Shown: positions 4,165 through 21,745, counted from the stretch's first letter. The stretch is 64,000 nt of DNA from Sulfobacillus sp. (GCA_027309085.1 DAIDDL010000002.1:47063-111062), one strand, 5' to 3'. A program made the numbers and translations. The notes: generated from the letters alone by a model not told the origin.

Positions 4165-4857
4165 CTACACTGGTTTAATCCAACGTATTTTCTGAACCGC
4201 TTGGTGGACGCCATCCAAGGCGTCCAATAGCTCTACCGTGCAGGCTCCATCAAATTCAATAGCCACGAGAGCGTCTCCATCCTTCCGGGACCGCTCCAAG
4301 GACAGCTGGCCCACGTTCACACCCACGTTAGCGACAGCCGCAAGCACGGCGGCCAGAAACCCAGCCCGATCCTTGTGCCACAAAACCACTGCCGGACGGT
4401 CTCCAGAGAGATGCACAGGAAATGCATCTATCTCAATTAACTCGATTTTGCCGCCTCCCAAGGAGGTTCCGACAATATCAACATCATCCACGCCATCCGT
4501 CAGCTTAATGCGTACAGTATTAGGATGATACAGCGCTCCAGAGACTTTTGTAAATACCACGGATATCCCTAACGCCTTCGCCATATCCAGTGCCCGGGGG
4601 ATACGGGAATCATCTGTGGCAAATCCCAAAATACCTGCCGTGAGTGCCTGGTCAGTGCCGTGGCCCCGGTAGGTTTCGGCAAAGGAGCCCATCAACTCAA
4701 AGACCACCGCCGTAGGATCTTGACCCAGCAGCTTTCTAGCCATACGGGCAATACGCAGTGCACCGGCAGTGTGAGAACTGGACGGCCCGACCATGACCGG
4801 TCCGATAATATCGAATGCGCTGTGGTATTTTACTGGGCGAGGCATGTTGGGTCTCAT
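4165..4857 (-). CDS. sdaAB: L-serine dehydratase, Fe-S dependent, beta subunit (ACT domain)
   Basis: SAFDIIGPVMVGPSSSHTAGA and GSFAETYRGHGTD motifs, C-terminal ACT domain; ATGA overlap with sdaAA. Confidence 0.95.
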   Translation of the reverse strand: MRPNMPRPVKYHSAFDIIGPVMVGPSSSHTAGALRIARMARKLLGQDPTAVVFELMGSFAETYRGHGTDQALTAGILGFATDDSRIPRALDMAKALGISVVFTKVSGALYHPNTVRIKLTDGVDDVDIVGTSLGGGKIELIEIDAFPVHLSGDRPAVVLWHKDRAGFLAAVLAAVANVGVNVGQLSLERSRKDGDALVAIEFDGACTVELLDALDGVHQAVQKIRWIKPV

Positions 4858-5741
4858 TGCTCGACACCACCCAGGATTTCCCGTCTGAGCCGCCGACCCG
4901 TGGGAGTCCCCGCAAGTCCCCCTATGCCAGTTTCCCGAAGCGACGCTGGCATAGCATTGCCAATGTCATACATAGCCCCAACCACTTCATCCGCCGGAAT
5001 AATATTGTGAACACCGGCCATGGCGCATTCGGCAGCAGCGAGCGCTGTAATCGCATGCAGTCCGTTGCGGTAGATGCAAGGGACCTCAACTAAGCCCGCC
5101 ACCGGATCACAAACCAGTCCTAGGGAGTTTGTTAACGCTAGGCCAACGGCATCCACTGCCTCTTGGGGAGTTCCACCGCACAGCTCAACAACAGCGGCGG
5201 CGGTCATCGCTGTCGCTGATCCCACTTCGGCCTGACACCCTCCAGCCGCTCCAGAAATGGAACTGGAGTTGGCAATGGCCAACCCTATGGCCGCGGCGGT
5301 TAGCAATGACTGGTTGATAGCGGCACGGGAATACTGCCCAGTATCCAACAGCGCTACCAACACGCCGGGCAGGATGCCCGCAGCGCCAGCGGTCGGAGTG
5401 GCCACAATTATTCCCATTGAGGCATTCACTTCGGACACGGCCATTGCAAAAGCCATGGCTGATGTGGCCACAGCACCAACCAAACTCGAGCCGTTTTTTT
5501 GAAATCTCGACCACAAGCGCTGGGCATCCCCGCCAATGAGTCCTCCGCGGGAAGGCAAGACTTCGGAAATTCCCCGGCGCACAGCTGCCTCCATGACAGT
5601 AAACTGGTGTGCCATGCGCTCCTGGATGTCCTCTGCCCGGCATCCTTGTTCTTCTACTTCTACGGCAAGCATCACGTCAGAAATTTTTAGTTGACGGCCC
5701 TCGGCCAACACCACTAGTTCCGTCAATTGAGTGAACGACAT
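4854..5741 (-). CDS. sdaAA: L-serine dehydratase, Fe-S dependent, alpha subunit
   Basis: IVATPTAGAAGILPG, GGCQAEVGSA and GLVCDPVAGLVEVPC motifs; RBS GAGGAGG before ATG 5741. Confidence 0.95.
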   Translation of the reverse strand: MSFTQLTELVVLAEGRQLKISDVMLAVEVEEQGCRAEDIQERMAHQFTVMEAAVRRGISEVLPSRGGLIGGDAQRLWSRFQKNGSSLVGAVATSAMAFAMAVSEVNASMGIIVATPTAGAAGILPGVLVALLDTGQYSRAAINQSLLTAAAIGLAIANSSSISGAAGGCQAEVGSATAMTAAAVVELCGGTPQEAVDAVGLALTNSLGLVCDPVAGLVEVPCIYRNGLHAITALAAAECAMAGVHNIIPADEVVGAMYDIGNAMPASLRETGIGGLAGTPTGRRLRREILGGVEQ

Positions 5742-5809
5742 AAGACAAACACCTCCTCTATATCGACTTGATAATGAAAGATGTCGAGGATTCTTTTCTG
5801 ACATGTTTA

Positions 5810-6004
5810 CTCTGTCCCTGAGCCTGAGAGTTTTGATGCCCTATGGCATCGTTCCCCGTCGGCGACCCAACCAGTGCGGTGCTTTCCAGAGGTGCGTCAC
5901 AAGACCGTCCTTGTACCTGAGAGATTCCTTTCCATGTGTCAGCGTTGAAAAGTTGCTCCTTCGGTTTCTCCTTATGAAATCGCTCTCCGATCTTGGTCAT
6001 CCGT
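5810..6004 (-). ncRNA. Tandem glycine riboswitch in the sdaAA leader
   Basis: The minus strand carries the leader GGATGA kink-turn. Aptamer 1: GGAGAG..ACCGAAGGAGCAA..CTCTCAGGT..AAGGAC. Aptamer 2: CTCTGGAAAG..CGCCGACGGGGAA..CTCTCAGGC..GGGACAGAG. Confidence 0.92.
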
Positions 6005-6116: not shown

Positions 6117-6872
6117 TTAGTCTAACGATGTCATTTTCAAACCGCCGTTAATCAGAGCGACTAAGGTATGATTCTTTATTCGGCTCCAGTTGTTGGGGAT
6201 GTTCCACTCAGACGATGCCACAACCGTTAGGTCATTGGCCTGACGGAAGTACAGATCGTAATATCCGGGGCTATCCAAATTAAGTGGGGAATCCTCTTGA
6301 TAATCCGCAATGACAAATAATCCATCTGACTGGAGAATCATTGCATTCAAGCTGCTGTAATCCAGCTCCAGATTATTATTTTTCAAGGTCCTGACCGTAA
6401 TACCGGCTGCGGTTATAGAGTCTTGGCACATCGAATAATTTTGCACCCAAAGCCAAAAATAATTTTCGCTGTCCGTACTGCCCTTGACCCGCGCTAGACT
6501 TTCTCTGGTTAAAAGGAGTGCCAACTTATCGACGGGGCCTATTGCGCCATTGTGGGCGAACGAAACTTGTTCTTCTTCCCAGACAAAAGGGTGCGTGTTA
6601 GCCTCGCTCACATCCAGTCCTGGCGTAGCCCACCGAAAATGCAAGATGCCCGCCAGCGCCGGTATCTCGCTCACAGCATAAGCGAACGCATCAGACTGCC
6701 ATGCGGGCCCCGCTTCCTTCATGGAATGCAGTTGGTCAGCGTCATCCACCCAAGAAATTCCCCACCCATCGCTGTGCTGCTTGGATAAACCAGCAAAACT
6801 CTCCCATCGGTCTGCCAACAAGGAAGAGAACGTCCTCGGTGACGGCGACTGGAACGCTAACATTCTACACAA
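6117..6872 (-). CDS. Class II glutamine amidotransferase / Ntn-hydrolase (EgtC/YafJ-like)
   Basis: N-terminal MCRM (Cys2 nucleophile), HSDGWG, HFRWAT, NTHPF, FAHNG, GSTDSE; TTG start with AGGAGG RBS. Confidence 0.9.
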   Translation of the reverse strand: MCRMLAFQSPSPRTFSSLLADRWESFAGLSKQHSDGWGISWVDDADQLHSMKEAGPAWQSDAFAYAVSEIPALAGILHFRWATPGLDVSEANTHPFVWEEEQVSFAHNGAIGPVDKLALLLTRESLARVKGSTDSENYFWLWVQNYSMCQDSITAAGITVRTLKNNNLELDYSSLNAMILQSDGLFVIADYQEDSPLNLDSPGYYDLYFRQANDLTVVASSEWNIPNNWSRIKNHTLVALINGGLKMTSLD

Positions 6873-6908
6873 TCACGTCGCCTCCTTAGGCCCGTCACGC
6901 ACAAAGTA

Positions 6909-6942
6909 TTCTAGACCCCCGGATTCATCCGGGGGTCTAGAA
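6909..6942. terminator. 15-bp perfect inverted repeat between SDR and amidotransferase (terminator or RNA-stabilising hairpin)
   Basis: TTCTAGACCCCCGGA-TTCA-TCCGGGGGTCTAGAA; no clear U-tract. Confidence 0.55.
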
Positions 6943-6949
6943 CCAGGAA

Positions 6950-7720
6950 TTAAAAATAGAACGACGTTAACCCTCCATCAATATTTAGCTCGGCTCCCGT
7001 CATCCACGCAGATTCCGTTGAAGCTAAATAGACCGCTAAGTGCCCAATATCTTCCGGAACGCCAAAGCGCCCCATAGGGATGCGAGCCAGCCGCAACGCC
7101 TTGGCAGCAGGATCTGTAAGAAGCCATTCCATTAGCAGCGGCGTTTCAATTGGCCCCGGGCAAATGGCATTGGCCCTGACACCTTTCGGACCAAACTGCG
7201 CAGCGAGTGACTTTGTCAAGGCAATTACTCCACCTTTGCTGGCCGTGTATGAATCTTGCGGCACTGTGCATCCCACTAGTGCGACAAACGAAGCAATGTT
7301 TATAACCGAACCGCCGCCAGCCGCGATCAACTCTGGGATTCCGTGTTTGCATACAATGAAGGTTCCCTTTAGATTCACAGCTTGCACCCGGTCCCATATC
7401 TCAACATCCGTGTCAATGACGGAGTGGTCCGCTTCAGGCATAATGCCAGCGTTGTTGTACAGGACGGTCAATTTGCCAAATTCTTGCACCGTAGATGCCA
7501 CCGCCGCTTTTACTGCGTCTTCCTGGGTGATGTCACAGACAATCGTCTTGATATGGCTTCCTTTCTCTTGCGCAAGATCCTTGGTTAAGCGTAGACCCTC
7601 TTCCAGCATATCCAATGCCGCCACATAGGCACCTTCTTGCGCAAACATCTTGGCGACGACTTGCCCCATTCCACTGCCTGCACCTGTAACTAACGCAACT
7701 TGTCCTTTTAATCGATCCAT
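6950..7720 (-). CDS. Short-chain dehydrogenase/reductase (SDR)
   Basis: TGAGSGMG cofactor motif, NNAG, YTASK catalytic motif, CPGPIETP. Confidence 0.93.
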   Translation of the reverse strand: MDRLKGQVALVTGAGSGMGQVVAKMFAQEGAYVAALDMLEEGLRLTKDLAQEKGSHIKTIVCDITQEDAVKAAVASTVQEFGKLTVLYNNAGIMPEADHSVIDTDVEIWDRVQAVNLKGTFIVCKHGIPELIAAGGGSVINIASFVALVGCTVPQDSYTASKGGVIALTKSLAAQFGPKGVRANAICPGPIETPLLMEWLLTDPAAKALRLARIPMGRFGVPEDIGHLAVYLASTESAWMTGAELNIDGGLTSFYF

Positions 7721-7742
7721 TGTGATTCTCCCCCTCGTCTCG

Positions 7743-9125
7743 TTAGATGCGTTCGAAATATCGCTCACGTTCCCATGAAGTGACTATGCCTTGGTAAGCT
7801 TCATATTCGATTCGTGCCGCGTTCAGATAGTGCGCCACGACCACTTCACTAAAACTTTCTTTAATGGCCGGACTTCCCTCAAATAAGCGTATAGCTTCTC
7901 CGAGACGGTTCGGCACTCGCGGCAGATGGGGATCCGCATAGGCATTGCCGTGGTACTCTGGCGGGCAATCAAGCTGATGCTCGATGCCCCAAAGGCCTGC
8001 AGCCAACATACCTGCCAGTGTGATATACGGATTTGCGTCCGCTCCCGGAAGACGATTTTCGATATGTAAGCCGCCTCCCTCCCCTACCACCCGCAGTCCA
8101 CAGGTGCGGTTATCATAGGCCCAGGCAATATTGACAGGGGCCCAACTGGCTGCGGCGTAACGTTTATATGAATTGACTGTCGGTGCATACAGCAAGGTGA
8201 ACTCCTGAGCTAGAGCTAGTTGTCCAGCCAGAAAATATTGCCCCAAAGGATTCATAGAGGTTGCAGACGAAGTATCTGAGAAAACGTTGCGCCCTGTTTC
8301 CTGGTCGATTAAGCTCATATGGACATGGCAGCTGGAACCGGTTAATTTGTGATCCGGTTTAGCCATAAACGTCACAGCTAGCTCATTCTGCAAAGCAATC
8401 TCCTTCAGTCCATGCTTGTACAGCGCGTGGTTATCCGCGGTCTCCAAGGCCGGACCATGGTCCATGTTAATCTCGTACTGGCCTGGCCCAGCTTCGCCCT
8501 TTGCCGAAATCACGGGAACTCCCGCCTCTCGCATTTGTTTCCGGACCTGACGGTAAAACGGCTCAGCTTTGGTGCTTTGTAAAAAATGATAGTCTTCCAG
8601 GTACCACCCATAAGTTTCTAAGTTCTGGTACCCCTTCTGGTGAGCTGTTTCGTAGGTTTCCCGCCAAAGATAGAACTCTAACTCGGTCGCCATCACCGGT
8701 TCAAATCCCATTTTCCGAGCTCTGTCGATTTGGGCCTGCAGCACCTGCCGGGGCGAGACCATGACTGGCTCACCTTCATGGTCGAAGACATCGCAGAGCA
8801 CCAGAGCTGATCCGGGAAGCCACGGAATGGCTCTCAGGGTAGCGAAGTCAGGACGGGCCACCCAGTCTCCATACCCTTCCTCCCACCCCATCAGTGCATA
8901 GCCAGGAGGTGTAGTCATTTCAATATCGGTCCCGAGCAGATATTTGCAAAAGTGCATGCCCGTTGCCATAACATTCGATAGAAAATAATCTGCAGGGATG
9001 CGCTTGCCAACTATCCTTCCCTGTAAGTCGACAATGCCAACTATCATTGTATCAATTTCCCCACGTGATGTTCGCTGCTTCAAATCATCTAAGGACATGA
9101 TGCCGTCTCTGTGCCCATTAGTCAC
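7743..9125 (-). CDS. Glutamine-synthetase-like gamma-glutamyl ligase (GlnA4/PuuA type)
   Basis: GS fold motifs ELEF, EAGPGQYEIN, FMAKP, GSSCHVHMS, NSYKR, DNRT, IENRLPGADANPY. The N-terminus (GEIDT..VDLQGR..GKR..GYGD..PD..TLR.IPW) is typical of GlnA4-like ligases rather than GlnA. Confidence 0.9.
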   Translation of the reverse strand: MTNGHRDGIMSLDDLKQRTSRGEIDTMIVGIVDLQGRIVGKRIPADYFLSNVMATGMHFCKYLLGTDIEMTTPPGYALMGWEEGYGDWVARPDFATLRAIPWLPGSALVLCDVFDHEGEPVMVSPRQVLQAQIDRARKMGFEPVMATELEFYLWRETYETAHQKGYQNLETYGWYLEDYHFLQSTKAEPFYRQVRKQMREAGVPVISAKGEAGPGQYEINMDHGPALETADNHALYKHGLKEIALQNELAVTFMAKPDHKLTGSSCHVHMSLIDQETGRNVFSDTSSATSMNPLGQYFLAGQLALAQEFTLLYAPTVNSYKRYAAASWAPVNIAWAYDNRTCGLRVVGEGGGLHIENRLPGADANPYITLAGMLAAGLWGIEHQLDCPPEYHGNAYADPHLPRVPNRLGEAIRLFEGSPAIKESFSEVVVAHYLNAARIEYEAYQGIVTSWERERYFERI

Positions 9126-9335
9126 ATTAGTCCCTCCAATTTCGTGGGTCTCAATCCGCCCAGTTACTTACGGTCACTTGTTCCATTTCCACTCAAAGAA
9201 CAAGCTAGCGGCCCTTTCCCTGCACCGTTCCCCTGGGTAAAGCAATGCCTCGAATTAGTACTCACTGGCGAGAATCCCTCGGAAGCAATTCATGCAACAA
9301 CATTGTTTCCGGGATATTTCTCGAAAATATGGTGG

Positions 9336-9551
9336 CTATCCCCACCACAGTGGTACACGGCTGCGCACCTTTCTGCGCGGGTTCTGGGGTCTCGGTGCGG
9401 AGCAGTGAAAACAGAGCTCTTGTTCCGCTATTCTTTGGGCATAATCAAAAGGCCACTGGATATAGATCGTATCGTCGTGCCCACACTGCCGGCGCACCTG
9501 AACAGGAAATGTCCTCTCGGCGGTGGACACCCTATTGGTATCAAATGCCAT
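9336..9551 (-). CDS. Small hypothetical protein (71 aa) with CGH...CxxC putative zinc-binding motif
   Basis: Strong RBS GGAGGT 4 nt before ATG; lies co-directionally inside the operon between permease and ligase. Confidence 0.55.
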   Translation of the reverse strand: MAFDTNRVSTAERTFPVQVRRQCGHDDTIYIQWPFDYAQRIAEQELCFHCSAPRPQNPRRKVRSRVPLWWG

Positions 9552-9590
9552 TTGACCTCCATCATATCTTCAAACGGCGAGTTTAAAAAC

Positions 9591-11135
9591 TCACAGTTTG
9601 GCTAACTGGTCCTCACTATCAGATTTTTGGATAATGGCTGGGCCCTTAAATTCATACCGCACCTTGGTGAGATACCAAGTCACGAGCAAGCCTACCACCA
9701 CGACCAACACGACCGGCGTGTAATTAAAATTGCTCAAGGTTACCGGGCGCACTACTGGCAGCGAGAACAAAATGCAGATGAAGATGACCCATCCTACGGC
9801 TAGCCACCCCACAACGCGGCTGTACTTTCCCAAATTCCAAGGGCCCGGTGTAAACCGCTCCGGATGGATGAGCTTCAAAAACGCTGGAGTCACATAGGAA
9901 ATAAATAACCCGATAACGCCAATGGACGTCACGGCAGAATATACGACGGAACTCCACAGTGCGGGAACAGCCAGCAGGAAGGCCAATATGGCCGATAGCC
10001 AAATAGCATTTTGGGGAGAACGGATTTTATTTAATTTCCTCAGTTTTTGGCTGGCAGGAAGCCCTCCATCCCTAGCAAACGCATAGATCATCCGGGAATT
10101 GGCGGTGACCGAGGACATTCCACAAAAAAACATAGCCACAAGAGCCATTGCAAAGAGGAGCGTGCCCCCTACCGAACCCAAACGCGTGGTGAAAATGTAT
10201 AGTACCGGATTCGCAGCCGCCAGGGTCTTAGTCATCGAGGGAATTGAGGCAACCATCCCCAGAAGTAAAATGTAGCCAACAATCCCAGAAATCGCCACGG
10301 AAAGAACGATGCCCCATGACGGAGCCGTTGAAGCCCCGATAGTTTCTTCAGACATATGCGCCGATGCGTCGAATCCGGTAATCGTGTACGATGCCAGCAG
10401 CATGCCAATTAAGAATCCATACCATAGAGGAAACCCTGTGTGGGTCTGGGCAAATCCGTAGATAAATGACCACACATGCACATGATGAGGTGCAAGAAAT
10501 AGGAGAGTGGCCACAATCAGGGTTGCGCCACCAACATGCCACCACACACTGACGTCATTGAGGATGGCGACAATTCTCACTCCGTTGATATTCAATAGTG
10601 CGTGAATCAATAAAAGAACGGCATAGATGCCGAGAGTGGCTTCAACCCCCGGTTGCCCCACCGTAGGGAAATGGGGAGCCCATTGGTTGATCAAGGCATC
10701 AATAAAAATCGCCAGACCATAATCAATGCCCGCAGTAATGGCCACTTGCCCTATAAGGTTAAACCACCCCGTAAACCAACCCCATCCCGATCCTCCAAGC
10801 ATACTGGACCAAAAATACAATCCGCCGGTGGTCGGGAAGGCCGATGCTGTCTCCGCCATATTGAGAGCCACAAACATGACGAATACGGTCACAATAGGCC
10901 AGCCATACGCTGCTGCCGCGGGCCCCGACGCCGTCAGCCCGAACGCAAACAACGTCAACGGCCCGCTAAGAATGGAAATAATCGTGAATGAAATCGCGAA
11001 ATTGGAGAATCCCCCCATCGTGCGATATAACTCCTGCACGTAGCCAAAACGTTTGAGCTCTTGCTCGTCATGCTGGATAGTATCTATTTCCCGCTCGTCG
11101 TGCTGAATAGTATCCGGAGGAACCCTTGGATTCAT
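9591..11135 (-). CDS. APC-superfamily amino acid/amine permease (ACT-like: GABA/choline-type)
   Basis: ~12 TM helices; ELKRFGYVQELYRTMGGFSNFAISFTIISI, SAFPTTGGLYFW and TGFDASAHMSEET motifs. Confidence 0.9.
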   Translation of the reverse strand: MNPRVPPDTIQHDEREIDTIQHDEQELKRFGYVQELYRTMGGFSNFAISFTIISILSGPLTLFAFGLTASGPAAAAYGWPIVTVFVMFVALNMAETASAFPTTGGLYFWSSMLGGSGWGWFTGWFNLIGQVAITAGIDYGLAIFIDALINQWAPHFPTVGQPGVEATLGIYAVLLLIHALLNINGVRIVAILNDVSVWWHVGGATLIVATLLFLAPHHVHVWSFIYGFAQTHTGFPLWYGFLIGMLLASYTITGFDASAHMSEETIGASTAPSWGIVLSVAISGIVGYILLLGMVASIPSMTKTLAAANPVLYIFTTRLGSVGGTLLFAMALVAMFFCGMSSVTANSRMIYAFARDGGLPASQKLRKLNKIRSPQNAIWLSAILAFLLAVPALWSSVVYSAVTSIGVIGLFISYVTPAFLKLIHPERFTPGPWNLGKYSRVVGWLAVGWVIFICILFSLPVVRPVTLSNFNYTPVVLVVVVGLLVTWYLTKVRYEFKGPAIIQKSDSEDQLAKL

Positions 11136-11372
11136 TTTTATTTCCCCTCCCTATTATTTAACAGGCGTGAAGGTGACTGCTACCAGGACGTAGGATGTTA
11201 GGCGAGCCGAGATTTGTGACACGATTCTATCAATATCGTAAGAAGACGGCCCGGCTTGTGCTATAGTCAATTTTTCCGATTTGTCTGTAATTATATAGAT
11301 AGAAATGCACATGCCATTTTATCTATTTCCCCGGAGTTTTCTATTCTCCATAATTTTATCGGGAGGCGGCGG

Positions 11373-12350
11373 ATGAACAACTATCACATAAAGCAGGGAT
11401 TGATGGCGACAAATGATGCACACGCCATGCTGGCAACTGTCGACCTGATAATATTCGACGTCGACGGCGTCTTGGTGGACGCGAGCCAATCCTACCCGTC
11501 GGCGATCCGCGACGCCGTGATCTTGTATTATTCTTTGTTTAATCGCAACAACAATATGAACTGCAGCATTTCTGTCGAAGACGTCAGTCTCTTCAAACAA
11601 GCAGGGGGATTTAACGACGAATGGCATTTAGCGTATGCTCTATGTCTATGGGTGATATGGCACAATATTGATACGGACAGCTTGTCTTTACAAGCGTTTG
11701 TTGAACAACTCTCACAACGCGGCGGAGGAGTTCAAGCCGCTGAAGAAATTGTTAAGCAGGCCGCGACTTCTTATTGGGATGTGATTCACACCGTGTGCCA
11801 GCGCGGCATCATAGAAAACATGGCAAAGGAACTCTATGGAGGGGAGGATTCTTGTGAACAGCTCTTTGGCTTCTCTCCGCATTATTTTAAAAAGCCGGGA
11901 TACCATCATTTGGAACGCGACCTCATAAATCCCTCGCACTTATCGCGGTGGCAAGGCCGGGTGGGAATCTATACGGGCCGCAATGAGCCCGAGACACAAT
12001 TCGTCTTGCGCAGATCTGGATTGGCCCAGTTTTTTTCGTCGGAGAACTGCCTCACCACCGACAGCGGTTACATCAAGCCGGACCCTGAAGGGATAAGATT
12101 TATTTTGGACCATGGGCGATACGAGAGAGCTCTCTTTATCGGCGATACATTGGATGACTTACGTACCGTTGATGGATACCGCACCCGTTACCCCCATGCC
12201 GCTCCCCTTTATTTTGCGGGCATCACCCAAGGAGCAATGGGTCCAAACAGCGAGCGTATTTTTGCTCAGCACCACGCAGATTTTATCGCTCCCGACGCGG
12301 CCACTCTCATCACAGCCCTCAATGGCCTGACACGCCTCGCGAGTGAATAA
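11373..12350 (+). CDS. HAD-superfamily hydrolase (phosphatase)
   Basis: Motif I FDVDGVLVD, motif II TGR, motif III KPDP, motif IV IGDTLDD; RBS GGGAGG before ATG 11373. Confidence 0.85.
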   Translation: MNNYHIKQGLMATNDAHAMLATVDLIIFDVDGVLVDASQSYPSAIRDAVILYYSLFNRNNNMNCSISVEDVSLFKQAGGFNDEWHLAYALCLWVIWHNIDTDSLSLQAFVEQLSQRGGGVQAAEEIVKQAATSYWDVIHTVCQRGIIENMAKELYGGEDSCEQLFGFSPHYFKKPGYHHLERDLINPSHLSRWQGRVGIYTGRNEPETQFVLRRSGLAQFFSSENCLTTDSGYIKPDPEGIRFILDHGRYERALFIGDTLDDLRTVDGYRTRYPHAAPLYFAGITQGAMGPNSERIFAQHHADFIAPDAATLITALNGLTRLASE

Positions 12351-14677: not shown

Positions 14678-15910
14678 TTGTTTATGGCAGCTCAAAAAAC
14701 ACAGACCATGAATGGACGTCTGATAACCTTAGCGGCTGTGGCTCGGTATGGTAGCGTTTTTTGTGTTTTTTTGAGTTATTTTGATCAGCCGAATCTTTCT
14801 TGGCCACGCATAACCAGTGCATTGCTGCTCTTCTGGGCCTTACTGGCTGCTTTCCAGGACAGGCGACCCGCAGACGATTCCGTGTTGTTGTGGGTTGCTC
14901 TGGAAATCGGGCAGGGACTGGTCGTGTTCTTTATTGGCCTGAGCGTAGACAACTCTGGATGGTATTGGATTTTGTATCTTATTCTCATTATGAGTACTAG
15001 CTTGACCATTCCCTTCCGTTATGGAGGTGGAATACTGCTCATGCTTTTTATGATGCGCGTAGTCAACTTTATGTGGACCAGCACATTGAGTACGGCTGCA
15101 TTTATGCAATCCTTCGTCACGACACTGTGGTTGTGGATTCTTTTATCTCTTACCGGATATATTGTGGTTAACAAGCTGGACGAAATGAATGCCTTGGAAA
15201 AAATGGCCCAAAAATTGACCAGCTCAAATCAGCAATTGACGGCCGCCTACGACAAGCTGCAGGAGTATTCCCGCGAGCTCGAAGAAACGGCCGCACTTCG
15301 GGAACGGGCGCGAATCGCCAGAGAAATCCATGATTCGCTCGGACACAATATGATTGGGCTCGTTTTGCAACTGGAAGCAGCTAGCCGTTCCTTAGCTCAG
15401 GATCCCCCGCTCTCCGCCGATCATCTTCATAACGCCCTTCAGTTGGCTAAATTGGCCACAACCGAAATGCGTCATGCGGTAAAAGCTCTGAGACCACCCC
15501 TGTTGATTCCCGGGCAAATTATCCTGGCCCTCGAACGGCTGATTGATGATTTCTCTGCTGTGACGGGGGTTGACGTGGAGTTTTTAACAAATCTGCAAGA
15601 ATTTGTTTTGGCGGACCAGGTCGAGATAACGGTTTACCGTTCCGTACAGGAAGCCCTGACAAACGCCTACCGCCACGGCGGTGCCAACAATATCCTGGTG
15701 CATATCCGGCAATGCAGTCACTGGATGGCGGTCCGTGTGCATGATGATGGCTTGGGCGTAACGCAGGTTCAAGAAAATTTTGGCCTCGACACCATGAGAA
15801 GGCGAACTGAGCAGGCCGGGGGAACTATAAGGTTCCGGAGCCGCATTCATCACGGTTTCACGATCTTCTTAATAGTACCTATCGGCAACGCACGCTTCGC
15901 TGGAAGTTGA
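14678..15910 (+). CDS. Membrane sensor histidine kinase (HisKA_3; DesK/NarX/LiaS type)
   Basis: N-terminal TMs, ERARIAREIHDSLGH H-box, QEALTNAYRHG N-box, DDGLG G-box. Confidence 0.92.
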   Translation: MFMAAQKTQTMNGRLITLAAVARYGSVFCVFLSYFDQPNLSWPRITSALLLFWALLAAFQDRRPADDSVLLWVALEIGQGLVVFFIGLSVDNSGWYWILYLILIMSTSLTIPFRYGGGILLMLFMMRVVNFMWTSTLSTAAFMQSFVTTLWLWILLSLTGYIVVNKLDEMNALEKMAQKLTSSNQQLTAAYDKLQEYSRELEETAALRERARIAREIHDSLGHNMIGLVLQLEAASRSLAQDPPLSADHLHNALQLAKLATTEMRHAVKALRPPLLIPGQIILALERLIDDFSAVTGVDVEFLTNLQEFVLADQVEITVYRSVQEALTNAYRHGGANNILVHIRQCSHWMAVRVHDDGLGVTQVQENFGLDTMRRRTEQAGGTIRFRSRIHHGFTIFLIVPIGNARFAGS

Positions 15911-15935
15911 CGCAGACTAATGGAGGGGCAATACC

Positions 15936-16658
15936 ATGGAGATCATACGTGTCATGATTGTTGACGATCAAACGTTAGTGTGTCACGGCATTCAAACGAT
16001 TTTAGATATGGAGCCTGACATTTCGGTGGTGGCCATGGCGTCGAACGGCCGTGAGGCGATAAATTATGCGCGGAATCTCCAACCCGACATTATTTTGATG
16101 GACCTCAACATGCCGGTAATGGACGGCGTCCAGAGCACGCGGGAGATCGTGCGCGAAATTCCATCCAGTCGCATTATCATTCTCACCATATTCGATGATG
16201 ATAATTACGTGTTTGAGGGGGTCTCTGCGGGGGCCATCGGCTATTTGATGAAGGATGTGTCGGCAGAAGACTTGATTAATTCCGTGAGAACGGTAGCCCG
16301 TGGGGGGGCGATGGTCGCTCCCCATGTTGCTGCGAAGATTTTAAAACAGTTCGGCCGCCTAACACGGTCCACCTCCCCCTCCCTGGACAAAGTCGCGCAG
16401 CCAGCGGAGAATCATCTCAAGCGCGAAGACTCCCACAGCTACGGGTTGACAAACCGCGAGTGGGATATCCTAGATTGCCTGGCACGGGGCTATAGCAATA
16501 AGAAGATCGCTGAAAGTCTCCATATAGCGGACGGTACCGTCAAAAACCATATTTGCCATATTTTTGATAAGCTTCAGTTGCGTGACCGCACGCAAGTGGC
16601 CCTGTTTGCCGTAAAAAATCGCCCCCCTGATTCGCGTAGACCCTTGTCCAAAGCCTGA
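15936..16658 (+). CDS. NarL/LuxR-family response regulator
   Basis: Receiver (VDDQ, MDLNMP, GYLMKD) plus LuxR HTH (LTNREWDIL..GYSNKKIA..TVKNHI). Confidence 0.95.
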   Translation: MEIIRVMIVDDQTLVCHGIQTILDMEPDISVVAMASNGREAINYARNLQPDIILMDLNMPVMDGVQSTREIVREIPSSRIIILTIFDDDNYVFEGVSAGAIGYLMKDVSAEDLINSVRTVARGGAMVAPHVAAKILKQFGRLTRSTSPSLDKVAQPAENHLKREDSHSYGLTNREWDILDCLARGYSNKKIAESLHIADGTVKNHICHIFDKLQLRDRTQVALFAVKNRPPDSRRPLSKA

Positions 16659-16744: not shown

Positions 16745-16797
16745 ATGGACGGTAAATCTTGTTTGGCAATAAACGCACAAGGAATGGGGGTGTTCTT

Positions 16798-17724
16798 GTG
16801 ACTAGGCATACACCGCAAACCCTGGAAACTGTGTTGCGGACGTCAATCCCTGAGTGGAAAGAGTTATCCTTATCTACAAAACATGTATCGGGAGGCATGA
16901 CAAACGAAAATTTTTGCGTTCAAGCCGGTGACCAGGCCTTTTTTGTGAGGTTGAGTGACCGCAACAGTCAAAGATTGGGCATTGACCGCAATGATGAATA
17001 TGCTGCCGCCTATGAAGCCGCCAAAATAGGCGTAGGTCCCCAGGTGCATGCGTATTTTCCCTTTCAGAGGATATTGATTACCCATTATATTGCCGGCCGT
17101 TCTCTGCTGTCGCAAGACTTCCATTCAACACAACGCCTCGATGAATTTATTGACCTCCTCTACCGAGTGCATCAATCGAAGCTGTCCATCAAGCCGTTCT
17201 CTGTCTTCGCCGTTGTTGGCAATTACTGGAATATCATCCGGGACCACCCGGCCAACCTTCCCGAGAATATTGGAGACATTTTATCTCTCGCTAGTGTCAT
17301 TGAGGATTATATTCCCGACGAGCCCACGACTCTGTGTCACAACGACTTGCTAGCAGCGAATTTCCTGGCTGACCATCAAACCCACCGCCTGTGGTTGGTC
17401 GATTGGGAGTACGCGGGCAGAGGCAGCCTCTATTTTGATTTAGGAAATTTTTGTGCGAATCAAGAACTTCCCGTGACTTTGGAACGATATTTGGTCGAAC
17501 GCTATTTTTCTTACCGGAATGTTGAGTACCATTTGGCCTGTGTTCGCCTGATGCGGATAATGTCCGATATCAGGGAAGCCTTTTGGGGGCTGGTCCAGCA
17601 CTGCCTGTCTCCTCTTTCGGTAGATTTTCTTGCCTATGCCGAACTGCATCTCAAGCGGGTTGAAAAAGCGATCGAAGCATCCGAATTGGATATGAATTTG
17701 AAGGTTATAGCCCAATGGCGCTGA
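16798..17724 (+). CDS. Choline/ethanolamine kinase family phosphotransferase (APH-like)
   Basis: GGMTNEN, CHNDLLAANFL (Brenner motif), VDWEYAG, YFDLGN. GTG start at 16798 inferred from the RBS; the ORF opens from 16759. Confidence 0.88.
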   Translation: MTRHTPQTLETVLRTSIPEWKELSLSTKHVSGGMTNENFCVQAGDQAFFVRLSDRNSQRLGIDRNDEYAAAYEAAKIGVGPQVHAYFPFQRILITHYIAGRSLLSQDFHSTQRLDEFIDLLYRVHQSKLSIKPFSVFAVVGNYWNIIRDHPANLPENIGDILSLASVIEDYIPDEPTTLCHNDLLAANFLADHQTHRLWLVDWEYAGRGSLYFDLGNFCANQELPVTLERYLVERYFSYRNVEYHLACVRLMRIMSDIREAFWGLVQHCLSPLSVDFLAYAELHLKRVEKAIEASELDMNLKVIAQWR

Positions 17725-17771
17725 CAACATTTTCCCCATTTCACTACTATCCATTCAAAGAAGGGTGAAGA

Positions 17772-20201
17772 ATGAAATCACAAGCACAGGTCGTCATTAT
17801 TGGTGGTGGAGTCGCCGGAACGAGTATCGCTTATCATCTAACCCGTCTGGGTTGGCATGATATTATCTTGCTGGACCGTAACGAACTCACCAGTGGGTCC
17901 ACCTTTCATTCGGCTGGATTAGTGGGACAGTTGCGCTCCTCTGTTTCATTGACCAAAATGCTGATGTACAGCGCGCAACTCTACCGCCGCTTGAAACAAG
18001 AAACGGGTGTCGATATTGGGTGGAGCGAAATCGGTAGTTTGCGGCTGGCATCAACACGGGAACGTTATGAAGAACTGGAGCGCCAAGCCGGCTGGGCCAA
18101 GTCTTTTGGCCTGCCTATGGAGTTAATCAGCCCAGCCGAAGCCAAAGAACTTTTCCCACTGATGGACGCGCAAGGCGTGTTCGGGGCTGCTTACCTGCCC
18201 ACCGATGGGTATCTGGATCCTAGCAGCCTGACCCAAGCGCTGGCTAGGGGTGCGCGTCAGGGCGGGGCTGACATTGAAACCTTCACGCGGGTCACTGGCA
18301 TCGACACTGAGCGAGGGCGCGTCAAACGCGTCATCACGGACAAAGGCACGATTGCCACAGAGATTGTCGTTGACGCCGGAGGAATGTACGCCAACGATAT
18401 CGGCAACCTCGCTAACGTTACCGTCCCCCTCATCCCCATGCAACACCAATATATTATAACAGAAGCGCTGAATGCGCCTAGTGAGATGATGGAGCGTCTT
18501 CCAACGATGCGGGACCCGGACAACTTGGTGTATTTTCGCCGCTGGGGTCAAGGCCTCGTGATGGGAGGCTACGAGCGCACCCCTGAGCCGTGGGGCCTGT
18601 CCGGCATCCCGGCCACATTCAATGGGCAACTTCTATCTCCTGATATGGACCGTTTCCTGCCGATAATGGAAGGGGCCATCAAACGGGTGCCGATAATGGA
18701 AAGCGCTGGAATTCAGACCTTCATTAATGGCCCGGAAGCGTTCACGCCCGATGGAGAGTTCATCCTAGGGGAGTCCGACGTTTCAGGATTTTTTGTAGCC
18801 GCGGGCTTTTGCGCTCACGGCATTGCGGGAGCTGGCGGTGTCGGCCGGATGATGGCTGAATGGATTGTAGAGGGTGAACCGTCTCTGGATTTGTGGAAGA
18901 TGGATATCCGCCGATTTGGACCCCAATACCGTGGCAGACAGCTGGCCCTTGAACGGACGAAGGAAATTTACCAGACCTACTACGATATCCGTTATCCTCA
19001 TGAAGAATACTTAAGCGCGCGTCCCCTGCGCCTATCCCCTGCCTACCCTGCTCTCGTGGCCTTACAGGCAGAATTTGGAGAAAAGGCGAACTGGGAACGC
19101 GTGAATTGGTTCCGGTCTAATGAAATAAACTCCGGCGATATAGACCGTCCCCACGGATGGGCGGGGCAAGTCTGGTCCTCTGCCATTGGAGTGGAACATC
19201 TGGCCACGCGTGAGCGGGTCGGTTTGTTTGACGAAACGTCGTTTAGCAAATTAGAAATCGGAGGGTCCGATGCGTTGGCTTTTTTACAGCACCTCTGTGA
19301 TAATGACATCGACCAGCCACCGGGCACGATCGTTTACACCCAGTTGCTGAACTCGCGCGGGGGCATTGAATGCGACTTGACGATCACACGTCTGGCTCAG
19401 GATAGATTTCGCCTGATCACAGGCACCGCTTTTGGCTACCATGATATGGGCTGGATTAAGAAGCACTTAGATCCAGAAAAACAGATCTACATCCAAGACG
19501 TGACCTCACAGCTCGCCTGTATTGCATTATGGGGCCCGCTGTCCCGCGATGTGCTGCAGCCTTTAGCCTCTAAAAGTCTCGCGGGTGACCAGTTTCCTTA
19601 CATGACGGCACAAGAGCTCTTTGTTGGCGACATCCCCTGTTTGGCTGCACGCGTGACATTTGTTGGCGAGTTGGGTTGGGAATTGTATTGTCCCATGGAA
19701 TTCGGCTTGGCTCTGTGGAACGTGCTCTACAACGCGGGGCAGCCATTCGGACTCATAGCCGGCGGGTACCGCGCGATCGATTCACTCCGGCTGGAAAAGG
19801 GATTCCGTGTATGGGGCTCCGATGTTACTCCGGAAACGACGCCACTGGAGGCGGGCCTCGGGTTTTGTGTAAAAATGGACAAACCGGGCGGGTTTATCGG
19901 CCGCGACGCCTTATTAGCCCAGCGTAGTGAGGGATTACAGCAGCGGCTGAGATGTTTGGTTTTGGATGACCCCCAGTCTGTCGCTGAAGAAGGCGAACCC
20001 GTTCAGTTTCAAGGAGATGTCATAGGGCGCGTTAGAAGCGGCGGCTATGGTTATTCTCTTCAGAAAAGTTTAGCGTATGCTTATCTGCCGCTGCATATCA
20101 AGGTGGGTGAGCGCGTTAGTGTCGAAGTGATGGGACAGTGGATCCCCGCGACCGTGATGAAAGAACCCATTATGGCACGCGCTCCCGGTCTGACTCAATA
20201 G
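17772..20201 (+). CDS. GcvT-family FAD-dependent oxidoreductase (dimethylglycine/sarcosine dehydrogenase-like)
   Basis: 809 aa: GGGVAG FAD motif, GSTFHSAGLV, NGPEAFTPDG, aminomethyltransferase domain (SLRLEKG). Confidence 0.92.
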   Translation: MKSQAQVVIIGGGVAGTSIAYHLTRLGWHDIILLDRNELTSGSTFHSAGLVGQLRSSVSLTKMLMYSAQLYRRLKQETGVDIGWSEIGSLRLASTRERYEELERQAGWAKSFGLPMELISPAEAKELFPLMDAQGVFGAAYLPTDGYLDPSSLTQALARGARQGGADIETFTRVTGIDTERGRVKRVITDKGTIATEIVVDAGGMYANDIGNLANVTVPLIPMQHQYIITEALNAPSEMMERLPTMRDPDNLVYFRRWGQGLVMGGYERTPEPWGLSGIPATFNGQLLSPDMDRFLPIMEGAIKRVPIMESAGIQTFINGPEAFTPDGEFILGESDVSGFFVAAGFCAHGIAGAGGVGRMMAEWIVEGEPSLDLWKMDIRRFGPQYRGRQLALERTKEIYQTYYDIRYPHEEYLSARPLRLSPAYPALVALQAEFGEKANWERVNWFRSNEINSGDIDRPHGWAGQVWSSAIGVEHLATRERVGLFDETSFSKLEIGGSDALAFLQHLCDNDIDQPPGTIVYTQLLNSRGGIECDLTITRLAQDRFRLITGTAFGYHDMGWIKKHLDPEKQIYIQDVTSQLACIALWGPLSRDVLQPLASKSLAGDQFPYMTAQELFVGDIPCLAARVTFVGELGWELYCPMEFGLALWNVLYNAGQPFGLIAGGYRAIDSLRLEKGFRVWGSDVTPETTPLEAGLGFCVKMDKPGGFIGRDALLAQRSEGLQQRLRCLVLDDPQSVAEEGEPVQFQGDVIGRVRSGGYGYSLQKSLAYAYLPLHIKVGERVSVEVMGQWIPATVMKEPIMARAPGLTQ

Positions 20202-20287
20202 ACTATGATTAATTGCGGAGGCTCCATAACAGGAGTCGACGCCCTTGCTTGATGGCTTTCATTATACAAAGAGGGGTGATTGGTCCG

Positions 20288-21745
20288 ATGGTTTCCAGCG
20301 AACGTTCTGTGTGGCAGGCTTGGATAAATGGACGGTGGACCGACAGTATCAGCGGGCAAAAATTCAGCGTTGACGAACCAGCCACCGGATTGCGCTTAGC
20401 TGAGGTATCCAAACTTTCCTCAGAAGATGTGGACCAGGCAGTCAGCATCGCAAAACGCCAATTCGATAGTCAGCAGTGGAGTGGAATTTCCGCGACGGCT
20501 CGCGGAAAAGTTTTGTACCGTCTAGCCACTTTAATCCACGACAACGCAGATGTTCTGGCTCAATGGGAAACGCGGCAAGGCGGCAAAACGTTTCAAGATT
20601 CTCTTGATGAAGTACACACAGCAGCGGATTGCTTTGAATATTATGCTGGCGCAGCGAATAAGATTTTCGGCCACACGATTCCTGTTTCCGCCAAGGGCTT
20701 GGATTACACTCTTCGCGTTCCTGTAGGGGTGGTCGCCCTAATCGTTCCATGGAACTTTCCGTTTTTAATTACGGCATGGAAAGTCGCTCCAGCCTTGGCG
20801 GCTGGCAACAGTGTCATTGTGAAACCAGCAAGCTACACTCCCCTCACAGCTTTGGCACTCGGCGAGTTGACAGCCGAAGCGGGAATTCCTGATGGAATAT
20901 TTAACGTTACTCCCGGCCCCGGCAGTGAAGTTGGGGAAGCACTCGTATCCGATCCCAGGGTTGACAAGATTGCATTTACAGGCGAGACCACCACAGGGAC
21001 TCGCATCCTGCAACTCGCAGCGCCCGGAATAAAGCGTGTGTCACTTGAACTGGGAGGCAAATCTCCTACGATTGCTTTTAGCGGCATAGATATTGAGCGT
21101 TTCGCCAAGCTTGCTGTGCAGTCCGCATACGGCAACGCTGGCCAGGACTGTTGCGCCCGGAGCCGGGTCCTTGTTGAACGCAAAATTCTTGAACCGTTCA
21201 CCGAAGCTTTTGTACGCAACGTGAAATCATTAAGCGTCGGAAACCCATTTGATCCTCACACGGCAGTCGGTCCTCTTGTATCCCAGGCGCATCGCAACCG
21301 CGTTTCGCATTACATTGACCTAGGCCTTGAAGAGGGGGGCACACTGGCTATGGAGCCCGAAGACCGGAATGTGCCGGAACAAGGCTACTACCTCGCTCCC
21401 GTGGTGTTTACCAACGTCAATTCACAAATGGCGATTGTCCGCGAGGAAATTTTTGGCCCTGTCAGTTCCATCCAGGCCTTTGATACGGAAGAGGAGGCCA
21501 TCAGACTGGCCAATGACACGCCCTATGGTCTGGCTGGCTCCATATTCTCGAACTCTGTTGGCCAAGCTCTTAGAGTCGCGGCGGCTGTGCGTACTGGCGT
21601 CATGAGCGTCAACAGCATTAAAAGCGTCCACCTGGAGGCTCCATTCGGCGGCTTTAAGCAAAGTGGCCTAGGACGCGAACTAGGTATGGAAGCCTTCGAT
21701 CACTACACGGAAACAAAGAACATCTTTGTTTCTCTAGACGATTGA
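20288..21745 (+). CDS. NAD-dependent aldehyde dehydrogenase
   Basis: PWNFP, FTGET, LELGGKSP (catalytic Glu), GQDCCAR (catalytic Cys), EEIFGPV, PFGGFKQSGLGRE. Confidence 0.95.
   Translation: MVSSERSVWQAWINGRWTDSISGQKFSVDEPATGLRLAEVSKLSSEDVDQAVSIAKRQFDSQQWSGISATARGKVLYRLATLIHDNADVLAQWETRQGGKTFQDSLDEVHTAADCFEYYAGAANKIFGHTIPVSAKGLDYTLRVPVGVVALIVPWNFPFLITAWKVAPALAAGNSVIVKPASYTPLTALALGELTAEAGIPDGIFNVTPGPGSEVGEALVSDPRVDKIAFTGETTTGTRILQLAAPGIKRVSLELGGKSPTIAFSGIDIERFAKLAVQSAYGNAGQDCCARSRVLVERKILEPFTEAFVRNVKSLSVGNPFDPHTAVGPLVSQAHRNRVSHYIDLGLEEGGTLAMEPEDRNVPEQGYYLAPVVFTNVNSQMAIVREEIFGPVSSIQAFDTEEEAIRLANDTPYGLAGSIFSNSVGQALRVAAAVRTGVMSVNSIKSVHLEAPFGGFKQSGLGRELGMEAFDHYTETKNIFVSLDD

Follow-up and report, generated by a model that had tools for sequence, protein, structure and literature searches.

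A predicted ethanolamine gamma-glutamylation locus of Sulfobacillus with an EgtC-like Ntn protein as candidate deglutamylase

Known glutamylation systems and the Sulfobacillus locus

Gamma-glutamylation is a general bacterial route by which reactive amines are catabolised without release of a toxic aldehyde. We have examined a 64,000-nt stretch of DNA from Sulfobacillus sp. (GCA_027309085.1, DAIDDL010000002.1:47063-111062), referred to below as the window, which carries at positions 6117–11135 genes for a glutamine synthetase (GS)-like ligase, a short-chain dehydrogenase/reductase (SDR) and a stand-alone class II amidotransferase-fold protein of the N-terminal nucleophile (Ntn) type. The closest described systems act on ethanolamine. 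The GlnA4 ethanolamine glutamylation pathway is established in Streptomyces (SCO1610–SCO1615; PMC6529630), and the same pathway logic has also been established in Chromohalobacter salexigens and Phaeobacter (PMC9397018, PMC10132767). The enzyme that finally removes the glutamyl tag is the one that genome annotators seek in order to recognise such pathways.

The actinomycete clusters that we inspected encode for this step a class I hydrolase of the PuuD type (Peptidase_C26). The proteobacterial ethanolamine pathway instead uses a member of the N-formylglutamate amidohydrolase (FGase) family (PMC9397018, PMC10132767), contrary to an initial annotation of the window in which all known glutamylation pathways were said to use a class I enzyme. 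PuuD and IpuF, of the putrescine and isopropylamine pathways, have the same predicted role as the window Ntn protein, that of removing the tag at the end of a pathway that starts with a GS-like ligase, but their class I triad amidotransferase fold (Peptidase_C26) is unrelated to the Ntn fold. The Streptomyces protein SCO1615 is termed 'glutamine amidotransferase' or 'gamma-glutamylglycine amidohydrolase' in papers; by analogy, gene order alone suggests that it is of the Embleya-like class I type. Homologues of the Ntn protein were no guide to the class of SCO1615, as a freshwater-actinobacterial Ntn query returned Nanopelagicales proteins only. One Streptomyces plasmid homologue was found, in an unrelated context.

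Like the Streptomyces coelicolor GlnA4 system and its counterparts, the window has a permease, a GS-like predicted gamma-glutamylethanolamide synthetase, an SDR and an aldehyde dehydrogenase (ALDH), and the SDR and ALDH of the Streptomyces viridifaciens, Embleya and Nonomuraea counterparts are 43–48% identical to those of the window. Like the Nonomuraea cluster, the window cluster lies directly upstream of an operon that is preceded by a glycine riboswitch and contains a serine dehydratase. It departs from the actinomycete clusters in carrying a class II Ntn protein, in having its ALDH gene 9 kb away in a divergent operon, and in its predicted regulation by a two-component system rather than by EpuRI. 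With the proteobacterial ethanolamine pathway (C. salexigens; Phaeobacter MED193_10021–10056; Paracoccus denitrificans plasmid 1) it shares the ligase clade, at 42–46% identity, and the predicted succession of ligase, alcohol dehydrogenase, ALDH and gamma-glutamylglycine hydrolase. The proteobacterial pathway differs in having a TRAP transporter, an iron-containing alcohol dehydrogenase and a PF05013 hydrolase. The five open reading frames (ORFs) of the initial annotation are all present on the minus strand, yet they do not form a closed unit: the unit runs on to the riboswitch and to the serine dehydratase genes sdaAA and sdaAB, and the ALDH gene lies outside it.

We consider it probable that the region encodes a gamma-glutamylation pathway from ethanolamine, or from a C2 amino alcohol very much like it, to glycine, with the Ntn protein as a non-orthologous replacement for the deglutamylase. 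The permease would import the amine, which the GS-like ligase would couple, with ATP, to the gamma-carboxyl group of glutamate to give gamma-glutamylethanolamide. The SDR would oxidise the alcohol to gamma-glutamyl-aminoacetaldehyde, and the ALDH would oxidise this to gamma-glutamylglycine. In the last step, the N-terminal Cys of the Ntn protein would attack the gamma-glutamyl amide, which would free glycine and restore glutamate. Glycine would bind the downstream tandem riboswitch and so turn on sdaAA and sdaAB, and its conversion to serine by serine hydroxymethyltransferase would lead, by deamination, to pyruvate and ammonia. The substrates and reactions of this scheme are all predicted from what can be read directly, namely gene content and order, family and clade membership, the catalytic set and model of the Ntn protein, the riboswitch and the comparative contexts. 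As judged from the orthologous clusters, the replaced counterparts are class I PuuD-type enzymes in Streptomycetaceae and Nonomuraea and FGase-type enzymes in Proteobacteria. An Ntn deglutamylase, which comparative genomics supports well, would be a new variation on an established pathway, the diversity of hydrolases (class I and FGase) being already implicit in the literature.

The ligase, the Ntn protein and the glycine riboswitch

The ligase gene (7743–9125, minus strand) encodes a protein that matches Gln-synt_C alone (E = 1e-94), with no match to Gln-synt_N. Its metal, ATP and glutamate motifs are intact (KGEAGPGQYEIN, GSSCHVHMS, NSYKR and IENR). Compared with proteins in the PDB, it scores 416 bits against 5dm3 and 413 bits against 11zs, at about 50% identity over the full length, whereas true glutamine synthetases score at most 189 bits and glutamate–methylamine ligase scores 162 bits. 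We take 5dm3 to be the C. salexigens enzyme of the ethanolamine pathway, although the entry title alone is silent on this. Scores against the NCBIfam models for PuuA (199 bits; cut-off 650) and GlnA (205 bits; cut-off 429) fall well short of their thresholds.

Orthologues of the ligase, sought in annotated plasmids and chromids, are 42–56% identical to it. The Thermomicrobium roseum orthologue (56%) stands in the order GS-SDR-eat, where eat is an annotated ethanolamine permease. The P. denitrificans PD1222 plasmid orthologue (46%) belongs to an RpiR-FGase-TRAP-GS-ALDH-FeADH cluster (FeADH, iron-containing alcohol dehydrogenase), the order of which is gene for gene that of the ethanolamine-induced Phaeobacter cluster (PMC10132767), and the Ruegeria conchae context is FGase-GS-ALDH-FeADH. 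Identity to the PuuD-cluster ligases of Streptomycetaceae and Nonomuraea is 45–49%, the contexts being perm-GS-PuuD-ALDH-SDR in S. viridifaciens (perm, permease), PuuD..GS-ALDH-SDR in Embleya and GS-ALDH-SDR-PuuD in Nonomuraea. A maximum-likelihood tree places the window ligase in a clade with 100/99 support, together with the Thermomicrobium ligase, the FGase-associated ligases of Paracoccus and Ruegeria and the PuuD-cluster ligases of Streptomycetaceae and Nonomuraea; the genome's two other GS paralogues and two further GS-like clades lie apart. On the strength of the PDB scores, the orthologue contexts and the tree clade, we assign the window ligase to the GlnA4 / ethanolamine gamma-glutamylase type and predict it to be a gamma-glutamylethanolamide synthetase. 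The likeness of the ligase and SDR to the GlnA4 cluster drawn in the initial annotation, and the phylogeny that it proposed as a check, thus both point to the ethanolamine clade.

The Ntn gene (6117–6872, minus strand) starts with TTG, 8 nt behind AAGGAGG, and its product begins MCRMLAF, so that Cys would become residue 1 once Met is removed, as an Ntn hydrolase requires. The protein matches PF13230 (GATase_4) with 62.7 bits against a cut-off of 23. An alignment of 26 homologues shows no variation at M1–C2, Arg80, Asn108–Gly109 or Asp134. By analogy with GlmS, PurF and EgtC, these residues presumably serve as the nucleophile (Cys2), the alpha-carboxylate ligand (Arg80), the oxyanion hole (Asn108–Gly109) and the alpha-amino ligand (Asp134). 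An AlphaFold2 model of the protein (pLDDT 94) has the EgtC structures 4zfk, 4zfj and 4zfl as its top Foldseek matches (E = 5e-18; TM 0.77/0.83), with an uncharacterised Silicibacter protein and the GlmS glutaminase domain next behind them. Judged from the invariant residues together with this model, the protein is built to bind a gamma-glutamyl group.

EgtC (PDB 4zfj/4zfk/4zfl) is likewise a stand-alone class II fold with an N-terminal Cys, and it cuts a gamma-glutamyl amide without ammonia transfer, which gives the chemistry proposed for the window protein a precedent. We do not regard the latter as an EgtC, because it scores 70.3 bits against the EgtC equivalog TIGR03442, far under the cut-off of 218.65, and because none of egtA, egtB, egtD or egtE is found among its neighbours within 15 kb (a genome-wide egt search was not made). 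Within this distance lie the permease, the GS-like ligase, the SDR, the sda genes, a HAD hydrolase, a two-component system, a kinase-family gene, a dimethylglycine dehydrogenase (DMGDH)-like gene and the ALDH. EgtC, a gamma-glutamyl-hercynylcysteine sulfoxide hydrolase, functions in ergothioneine biosynthesis and is about 21% identical to the window protein, the context of which is catabolic; the predicted leaving group is glycine for the window protein, as opposed to a hercynine thioether for EgtC. Yeast Dug3p is the class II amidotransferase-domain subunit of the Dug2–Dug3 glutathione degradosome. By description it resembles the window protein, as predicted here, in that a class II fold cuts a gamma-glutamyl bond in catabolism, but it is eukaryotic, is complexed with Dug2p and acts on glutathione. 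A fungal Dug3p homologue is covered in PMC12653102.

Beyond a 90% relative (L007), the closest homologues of the Ntn protein come from two uncultured Bacillota-like contigs, L008 and L014, the second from a Bacillota metagenome-assembled genome. The gene order is GS-SDR-ALDH-Ntn-kinase in L008 and kinase-RR-HK ... GS-SDR-ALDH-Ntn in L014 (RR, response regulator; HK, histidine kinase), and their GS and SDR proteins are 68–76% identical to those of the window. The window ALDH (20213–21745, plus strand; Aldedh, E = 1e-165), a predicted gamma-glutamyl-aminoacetaldehyde dehydrogenase, is the reciprocal best hit (64–68%) of the in-cluster ALDHs of L008, L014 and G176, a sister genus of the same family; the next ALDH paralogue in the genome is only 42–44% identical to these. 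The window gene set therefore corresponds to the compact set of L008 and L014 split into two divergent operons, with the ALDH step present. Conservation of gene order, another check proposed in the initial annotation, holds as GS-SDR-ALDH-Ntn in L008 and L014 but fails in G176, which has no orthologous Ntn gene.

The gap between the Ntn gene and the next gene measures 313 nt and contains a tandem glycine riboswitch (5802–6000, minus strand). Against RF00504 (gathering score 32), its adjacent aptamers reach 56.8 and 46.6 bits, and these two are the only matches to this family in the 4.5-Mb genome; the riboswitch is kept in L007. The 'glycine-GGAnGA' variant was considered and rejected: RF03166 was the best clan match but stayed below its cut-off, as it did in the B. 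subtilis and Caulobacter controls, and both aptamers pass RF00504. We classify the riboswitch from its sequence as the canonical glycine type and predict that it binds glycine.

The genes behind it, sdaAA (4854–5741; TIGR00718, 342 bits) and sdaAB (4165–4857; TIGR00719, 210 bits), both on the minus strand and both over cut-off, encode the alpha and beta components that make up a two-subunit iron-sulfur L-serine dehydratase. For sdaAA, the ATG at 5741, preceded by AGGAGG, is the likely start codon; the L007 gene call is 295 aa. The genome's only detected glycine riboswitch thus precedes a two-subunit L-serine dehydratase and not a gcvT operon. The tandem aptamers end about 60 nt short of the probable sdaAA start. 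Pairing is possible between the 3′ strand of the second P1 and the segment that separates the ribosome-binding site from the AUG, a hint of translational ON control, the fold itself being statistically non-significant. A scan and folds for an intrinsic terminator between the Ntn gene and the riboswitch, or for a clear expression platform, gave nothing significant.

In Nonomuraea gerenzanensis (NZ_LT559118.1, locus L098, 7001–14386), a tandem glycine riboswitch lies within 90 nt behind GS-ALDH-SDR-PuuD and is succeeded by gcvT and then a fused sdaA. This string is a contiguous ethanolamine-to-pyruvate gene set. A glycine sensor with serine/glycine catabolism is thus found directly behind the last pathway gene in two unrelated lineages, that gene being PuuD in Nonomuraea and the Ntn gene here. 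The shared placement points to glycine as product, hence to a C2 amino alcohol as substrate and to the Ntn protein as the glycine-releasing enzyme. It is the strongest indirect evidence that we have for glycine, which by this analogy is very probably the pathway product. Should the Ntn family perform deglutamylation, it would supply a new enzyme with a simple predicted reaction, from gamma-glutamylglycine to glutamate and glycine. The placement of a glycine-responsive switch directly behind the predicted glycine-releasing enzyme also offers a natural readout.

These data bear on two other readings of the locus. The same chemistry might serve a different small amine, such as N-methylethanolamine, a choline-derived amine, serinol, aminopropanol or 3-aminopropanol. 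The ligase clade, however, includes an eat-adjoining member and the Paracoccus counterpart of the ethanolamine-induced cluster (PMC10132767), although the window ligase is only 42–56% identical to the studied enzymes. A downstream serine dehydratase would fit a serine-yielding substrate such as serinol as well, but the aptamer pair is of the canonical glycine type, scores over the Rfam cut-off and has the same link to a pathway cluster in Nonomuraea. A choline/ethanolamine-kinase-family gene and a DMGDH-like FAD/GcvT oxidase gene travel with the window cluster, the kinase gene also with those of L008 and L014, and DMGDH-like genes adjoin the freshwater-actinobacterial clusters L033 and L067; against this, the ALDH step implies a primary alcohol. 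On balance, we think a substrate of this kind unlikely. It is far less plausible still that the genes are biosynthetic and that the gamma-glutamyl moiety temporarily shields or carries a secondary metabolite during its synthesis, as happens in the butirosin or hydrazine-transfer pathways. While GS-like ligases and gamma-glutamyl-removing enzymes are generally known in such pathways, no biosynthetic genes lie near the window cluster, and its context consists of a permease, catabolic dehydrogenases, a glycine riboswitch and a serine dehydratase.

Alternative hydrolases and distribution of the Ntn family

Peptidase_C26 has four matches across the genome, none of them on the window contig (C95), in agreement with the initial annotation that no PuuD-type gene is present nearby. 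FGase family PF05013 has no match anywhere in the genome. The genome's only full-length Peptidase_C26 gene, in the segment C11:37354–40986, overlaps a gene for asparaginase II and is preceded by one for a MazF-family toxin. A co-regulated PuuD homologue elsewhere had been named in the initial annotation as a finding that would tell against an Ntn deglutamylase; a PuuD-type C26 protein does exist on C11 and may be such a homologue. Its gene has no GS-like, SDR or ALDH neighbour.

Several observations weigh against the proposed pathway. The C26 gene on C11 (38854–39486) is full length and PuuD-type, scoring 192 bits, and stands beside asparaginase II. G176 has perm-AsnC-GS-SDR-ALDH, at 66–79% identity, with no orthologous Ntn gene, so that the hydrolase step can apparently be supplied from outside the cluster. 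The dN/dS of the Ntn gene, from comparison of the window with L007:9413–10168, is 0.27, against 0.03–0.07 for the permease, GS, SDR and sda genes. A strong hairpin stands between the SDR and Ntn genes, the ALDH gene is outside the operon, and the intergenic regions of the two operons share no operator motif of at least 10 nt. The substrate call rests on 42–56% identity to ligases whose own role in ethanolamine use is itself backed mostly by genetics, proteomics and transporter–ligand binding. Finally, a literature search turned up no measured activity for this Ntn subfamily, nor any paper on PF13230/YafJ-type or EgtC-like proteins as deglutamylases. G176 also encodes a distant 227-aa GATase_4 protein beside another permease, and behind its ALDH gene are just two unannotatable ORFs, of 76 and 122 aa.

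The first three of these observations could be accommodated if the C26 protein were the real deglutamylase and the Ntn protein an accessory, either a glutaminase feeding glutamate to the ligase or an enzyme that clears a side product. The C26–asparaginase II pair is syntenic in G176, the very genus that has GS-SDR-ALDH and lacks an orthologous Ntn. Nevertheless, the Ntn gene closes the GS-SDR-ALDH-Ntn series of L008 and L014 and occupies the PuuD position in freshwater-actinobacterial clusters that have no C26 gene. Its product differs from that of L007 by 26 amino-acid changes in 251 residues, none of them at a catalytic residue. Although it changes about four times faster than its operon neighbours, this comparison indicates that it is under purifying selection, with a constraint weaker than theirs. 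An accessory role for the Ntn protein therefore seems doubtful to us, and we favor it as the deglutamylase. The initial annotation had likewise put a class II Ntn protein in the deglutamylase slot, a placement that the GS-SDR-ALDH-Ntn relatives, the PuuD position in freshwater Actinomycetota and the riboswitch behind Ntn or PuuD all bear out.

With each species represented by one genome, a scan for the Ntn protein yielded over 530 relatives, of which the best 80 loci were examined. A GS-like gene lies within the fetched flanks of 43 of these 80 (33 of the 46 whose flanks reach 5 kb or more on each side), and an SDR gene directly adjoins the Ntn gene in 32. The GS-accompanied loci are mostly from freshwater Actinomycetota, Chloroflexota and Dormibacterota. 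Three architectures can be distinguished: (A) perm-GS-ALDH-SDR with Ntn, in freshwater Actinomycetota (Nanopelagicaceae and relatives) and the Bacillota group, with a GS in the GlnA4 clade; (B) SDR-GS-x-SDR-Ntn, in Chloroflexota, Acidimicrobiales, Microbacteriaceae and others (L019, L022, L025, L042, L049 and others) and (C) GS(-)..cupin-SDR-Ntn, in Dormibacterota (L028, L032, L080, L084 and others). Architectures B and C have GS-like proteins of two other clades and no ALDH, and probably represent glutamylation pathways for unknown amines. The Ntn subfamilies track the GS partner and cluster type, with 20 label changes on the tree compared with 39.5 in shuffles.

In the actinobacterial part of the GlnA4 clade, the GS proteins of the Ntn-bearing freshwater lineages are nested among those of PuuD-bearing Streptomycetaceae and Nonomuraea. 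The freshwater actinobacterial order SDR-ALDH-GS-perm | Ntn also mirrors the Embleya order SDR-ALDH-GS .. | PuuD. Nesting together with mirrored order is the pattern expected of non-orthologous displacement in place. Taken across genomes, these patterns lead us to lean, by a small degree, toward the stand-alone EgtC-like Ntn subfamily (PF13230) being a third class of catabolic deglutamylases, one that has repeatedly displaced PuuD and FGase types and has at least three GS-like partner clades, including that of the ethanolamine pathway of the abundant freshwater Nanopelagicales (acI). Were this true, many Ntn-bearing clusters could be read as amine-catabolic pathways, and abundant freshwater Actinobacteria, along with some soil Chloroflexota and Dormibacterota, could be credited with using ethanolamine that stems from phospholipid turnover.

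The variant is not special to a Firmicute, as the initial annotation had supposed. Uncultured Actinomycetota, Chloroflexota and Dormibacterota carry it widely, and none of 400 other genomes sampled from the same phylum has this Ntn protein. Six of the 400 have a ligase match at E ≤ 1e-80, and only the ligases of G176 and G161 fall in the GlnA4 clade; the G161 cluster holds a PuuD-like gene. This rarity within the phylum suggests that the cluster was possibly acquired.

Operon layout and neighbouring genes

The first gene of the operon encodes an APC-family permease (9591–11135, minus strand; PF13520, E = 3e-55; TIGR00907, 345 bits), a probable importer of ethanolamine or amino alcohols. It is 79% identical to the G176 permease, 44% identical to the permease encoded directly 5′ of a GS-like gene on S. 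viridifaciens pKVP1 and 35–39% identical to the permeases of the freshwater-actinobacterial clusters. The SDR (6950–7720 within an ORF of 6950–7768, minus strand; adh_short_C2, E = 2e-65), a predicted gamma-glutamylethanolamide dehydrogenase, probably starts at the ATG at 7720, which matches the gene call in L007. It is 71–73% identical to the in-cluster SDRs of L008, L014 and G176, being the reciprocal best hit of the L014 protein, and 43–49% identical to the cluster SDRs of Thermomicrobium, Streptomycetaceae and Nonomuraea.

A GC-rich 16-bp hairpin (6908–6943, minus strand) occupies the space between the SDR and Ntn genes. Its folding energy is −40.6 kcal/mol (z = −5.5), it lacks a U-tract and it ends before the Ntn ribosome-binding site. 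The stem is preserved in L007 by a two-sided change (A-U to C-G). One possible role is that of an attenuator or mRNA-stability element, by which Ntn expression would be made independent of that of the GS and SDR genes.

The ALDH gene, about 9 kb from the GS-SDR-Ntn operon, belongs to a divergent operon on the plus strand. A HisKA_3 histidine kinase (14678–15910) and a LuxR-type response regulator (15936–16658), identified by Pfam matches and spanning 14678–16658 on the plus strand, are reciprocal best hits, at 47% and 62%, of the pair adjacent to the L014 cluster, and are probable regulators of the neighbourhood. The choline/ethanolamine-kinase-family protein that follows (16759–17724, plus strand; PF01633, E = 5e-22) has orthologues, 42–48% identical, adjoining the L008 and L014 clusters. 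Its gene and that of the DMGDH-like oxidase, which combines FAD and GcvT domains, accompany the pathway ALDH gene (16759–21745, plus strand), and DMGDH-like genes whose products are 49–53% identical flank two freshwater-actinobacterial GS-ALDH-SDR-Ntn clusters (L033:3–1865; L067:1–2620). This company suggests that the pathway is connected with N-methylated ethanolamines, choline or sarcosine, and with a supply of methylene-tetrahydrofolate for the conversion of glycine to serine.

The 71-aa ORF (9336–9551, minus strand), which has a GGAGG ribosome-binding site, gave zero Pfam or NCBIfam family matches. Its only counterpart is in L007, with 68 of 71 residues identical and a dN/dS of 0.27, and on this comparison it is lineage-specific and outside the conserved pathway set. 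In G176, an AsnC/Lrp regulator gene (10430–10906 of L109, G176:C100:8000–21664) stands at the same position, between the permease and the GS-like gene. The idea that the ORF is a remnant of this regulator was dropped, as comparison of the two showed no similarity. On the far side of the permease, a HAD-hydrolase ORF (11256–12350, plus strand) encodes 364 aa from its first TTG, compared with a gene call of 325 aa in L007; given the shorter call, the divergent intergenic region that it shares with the permease is probably about 240 nt rather than 120 nt.

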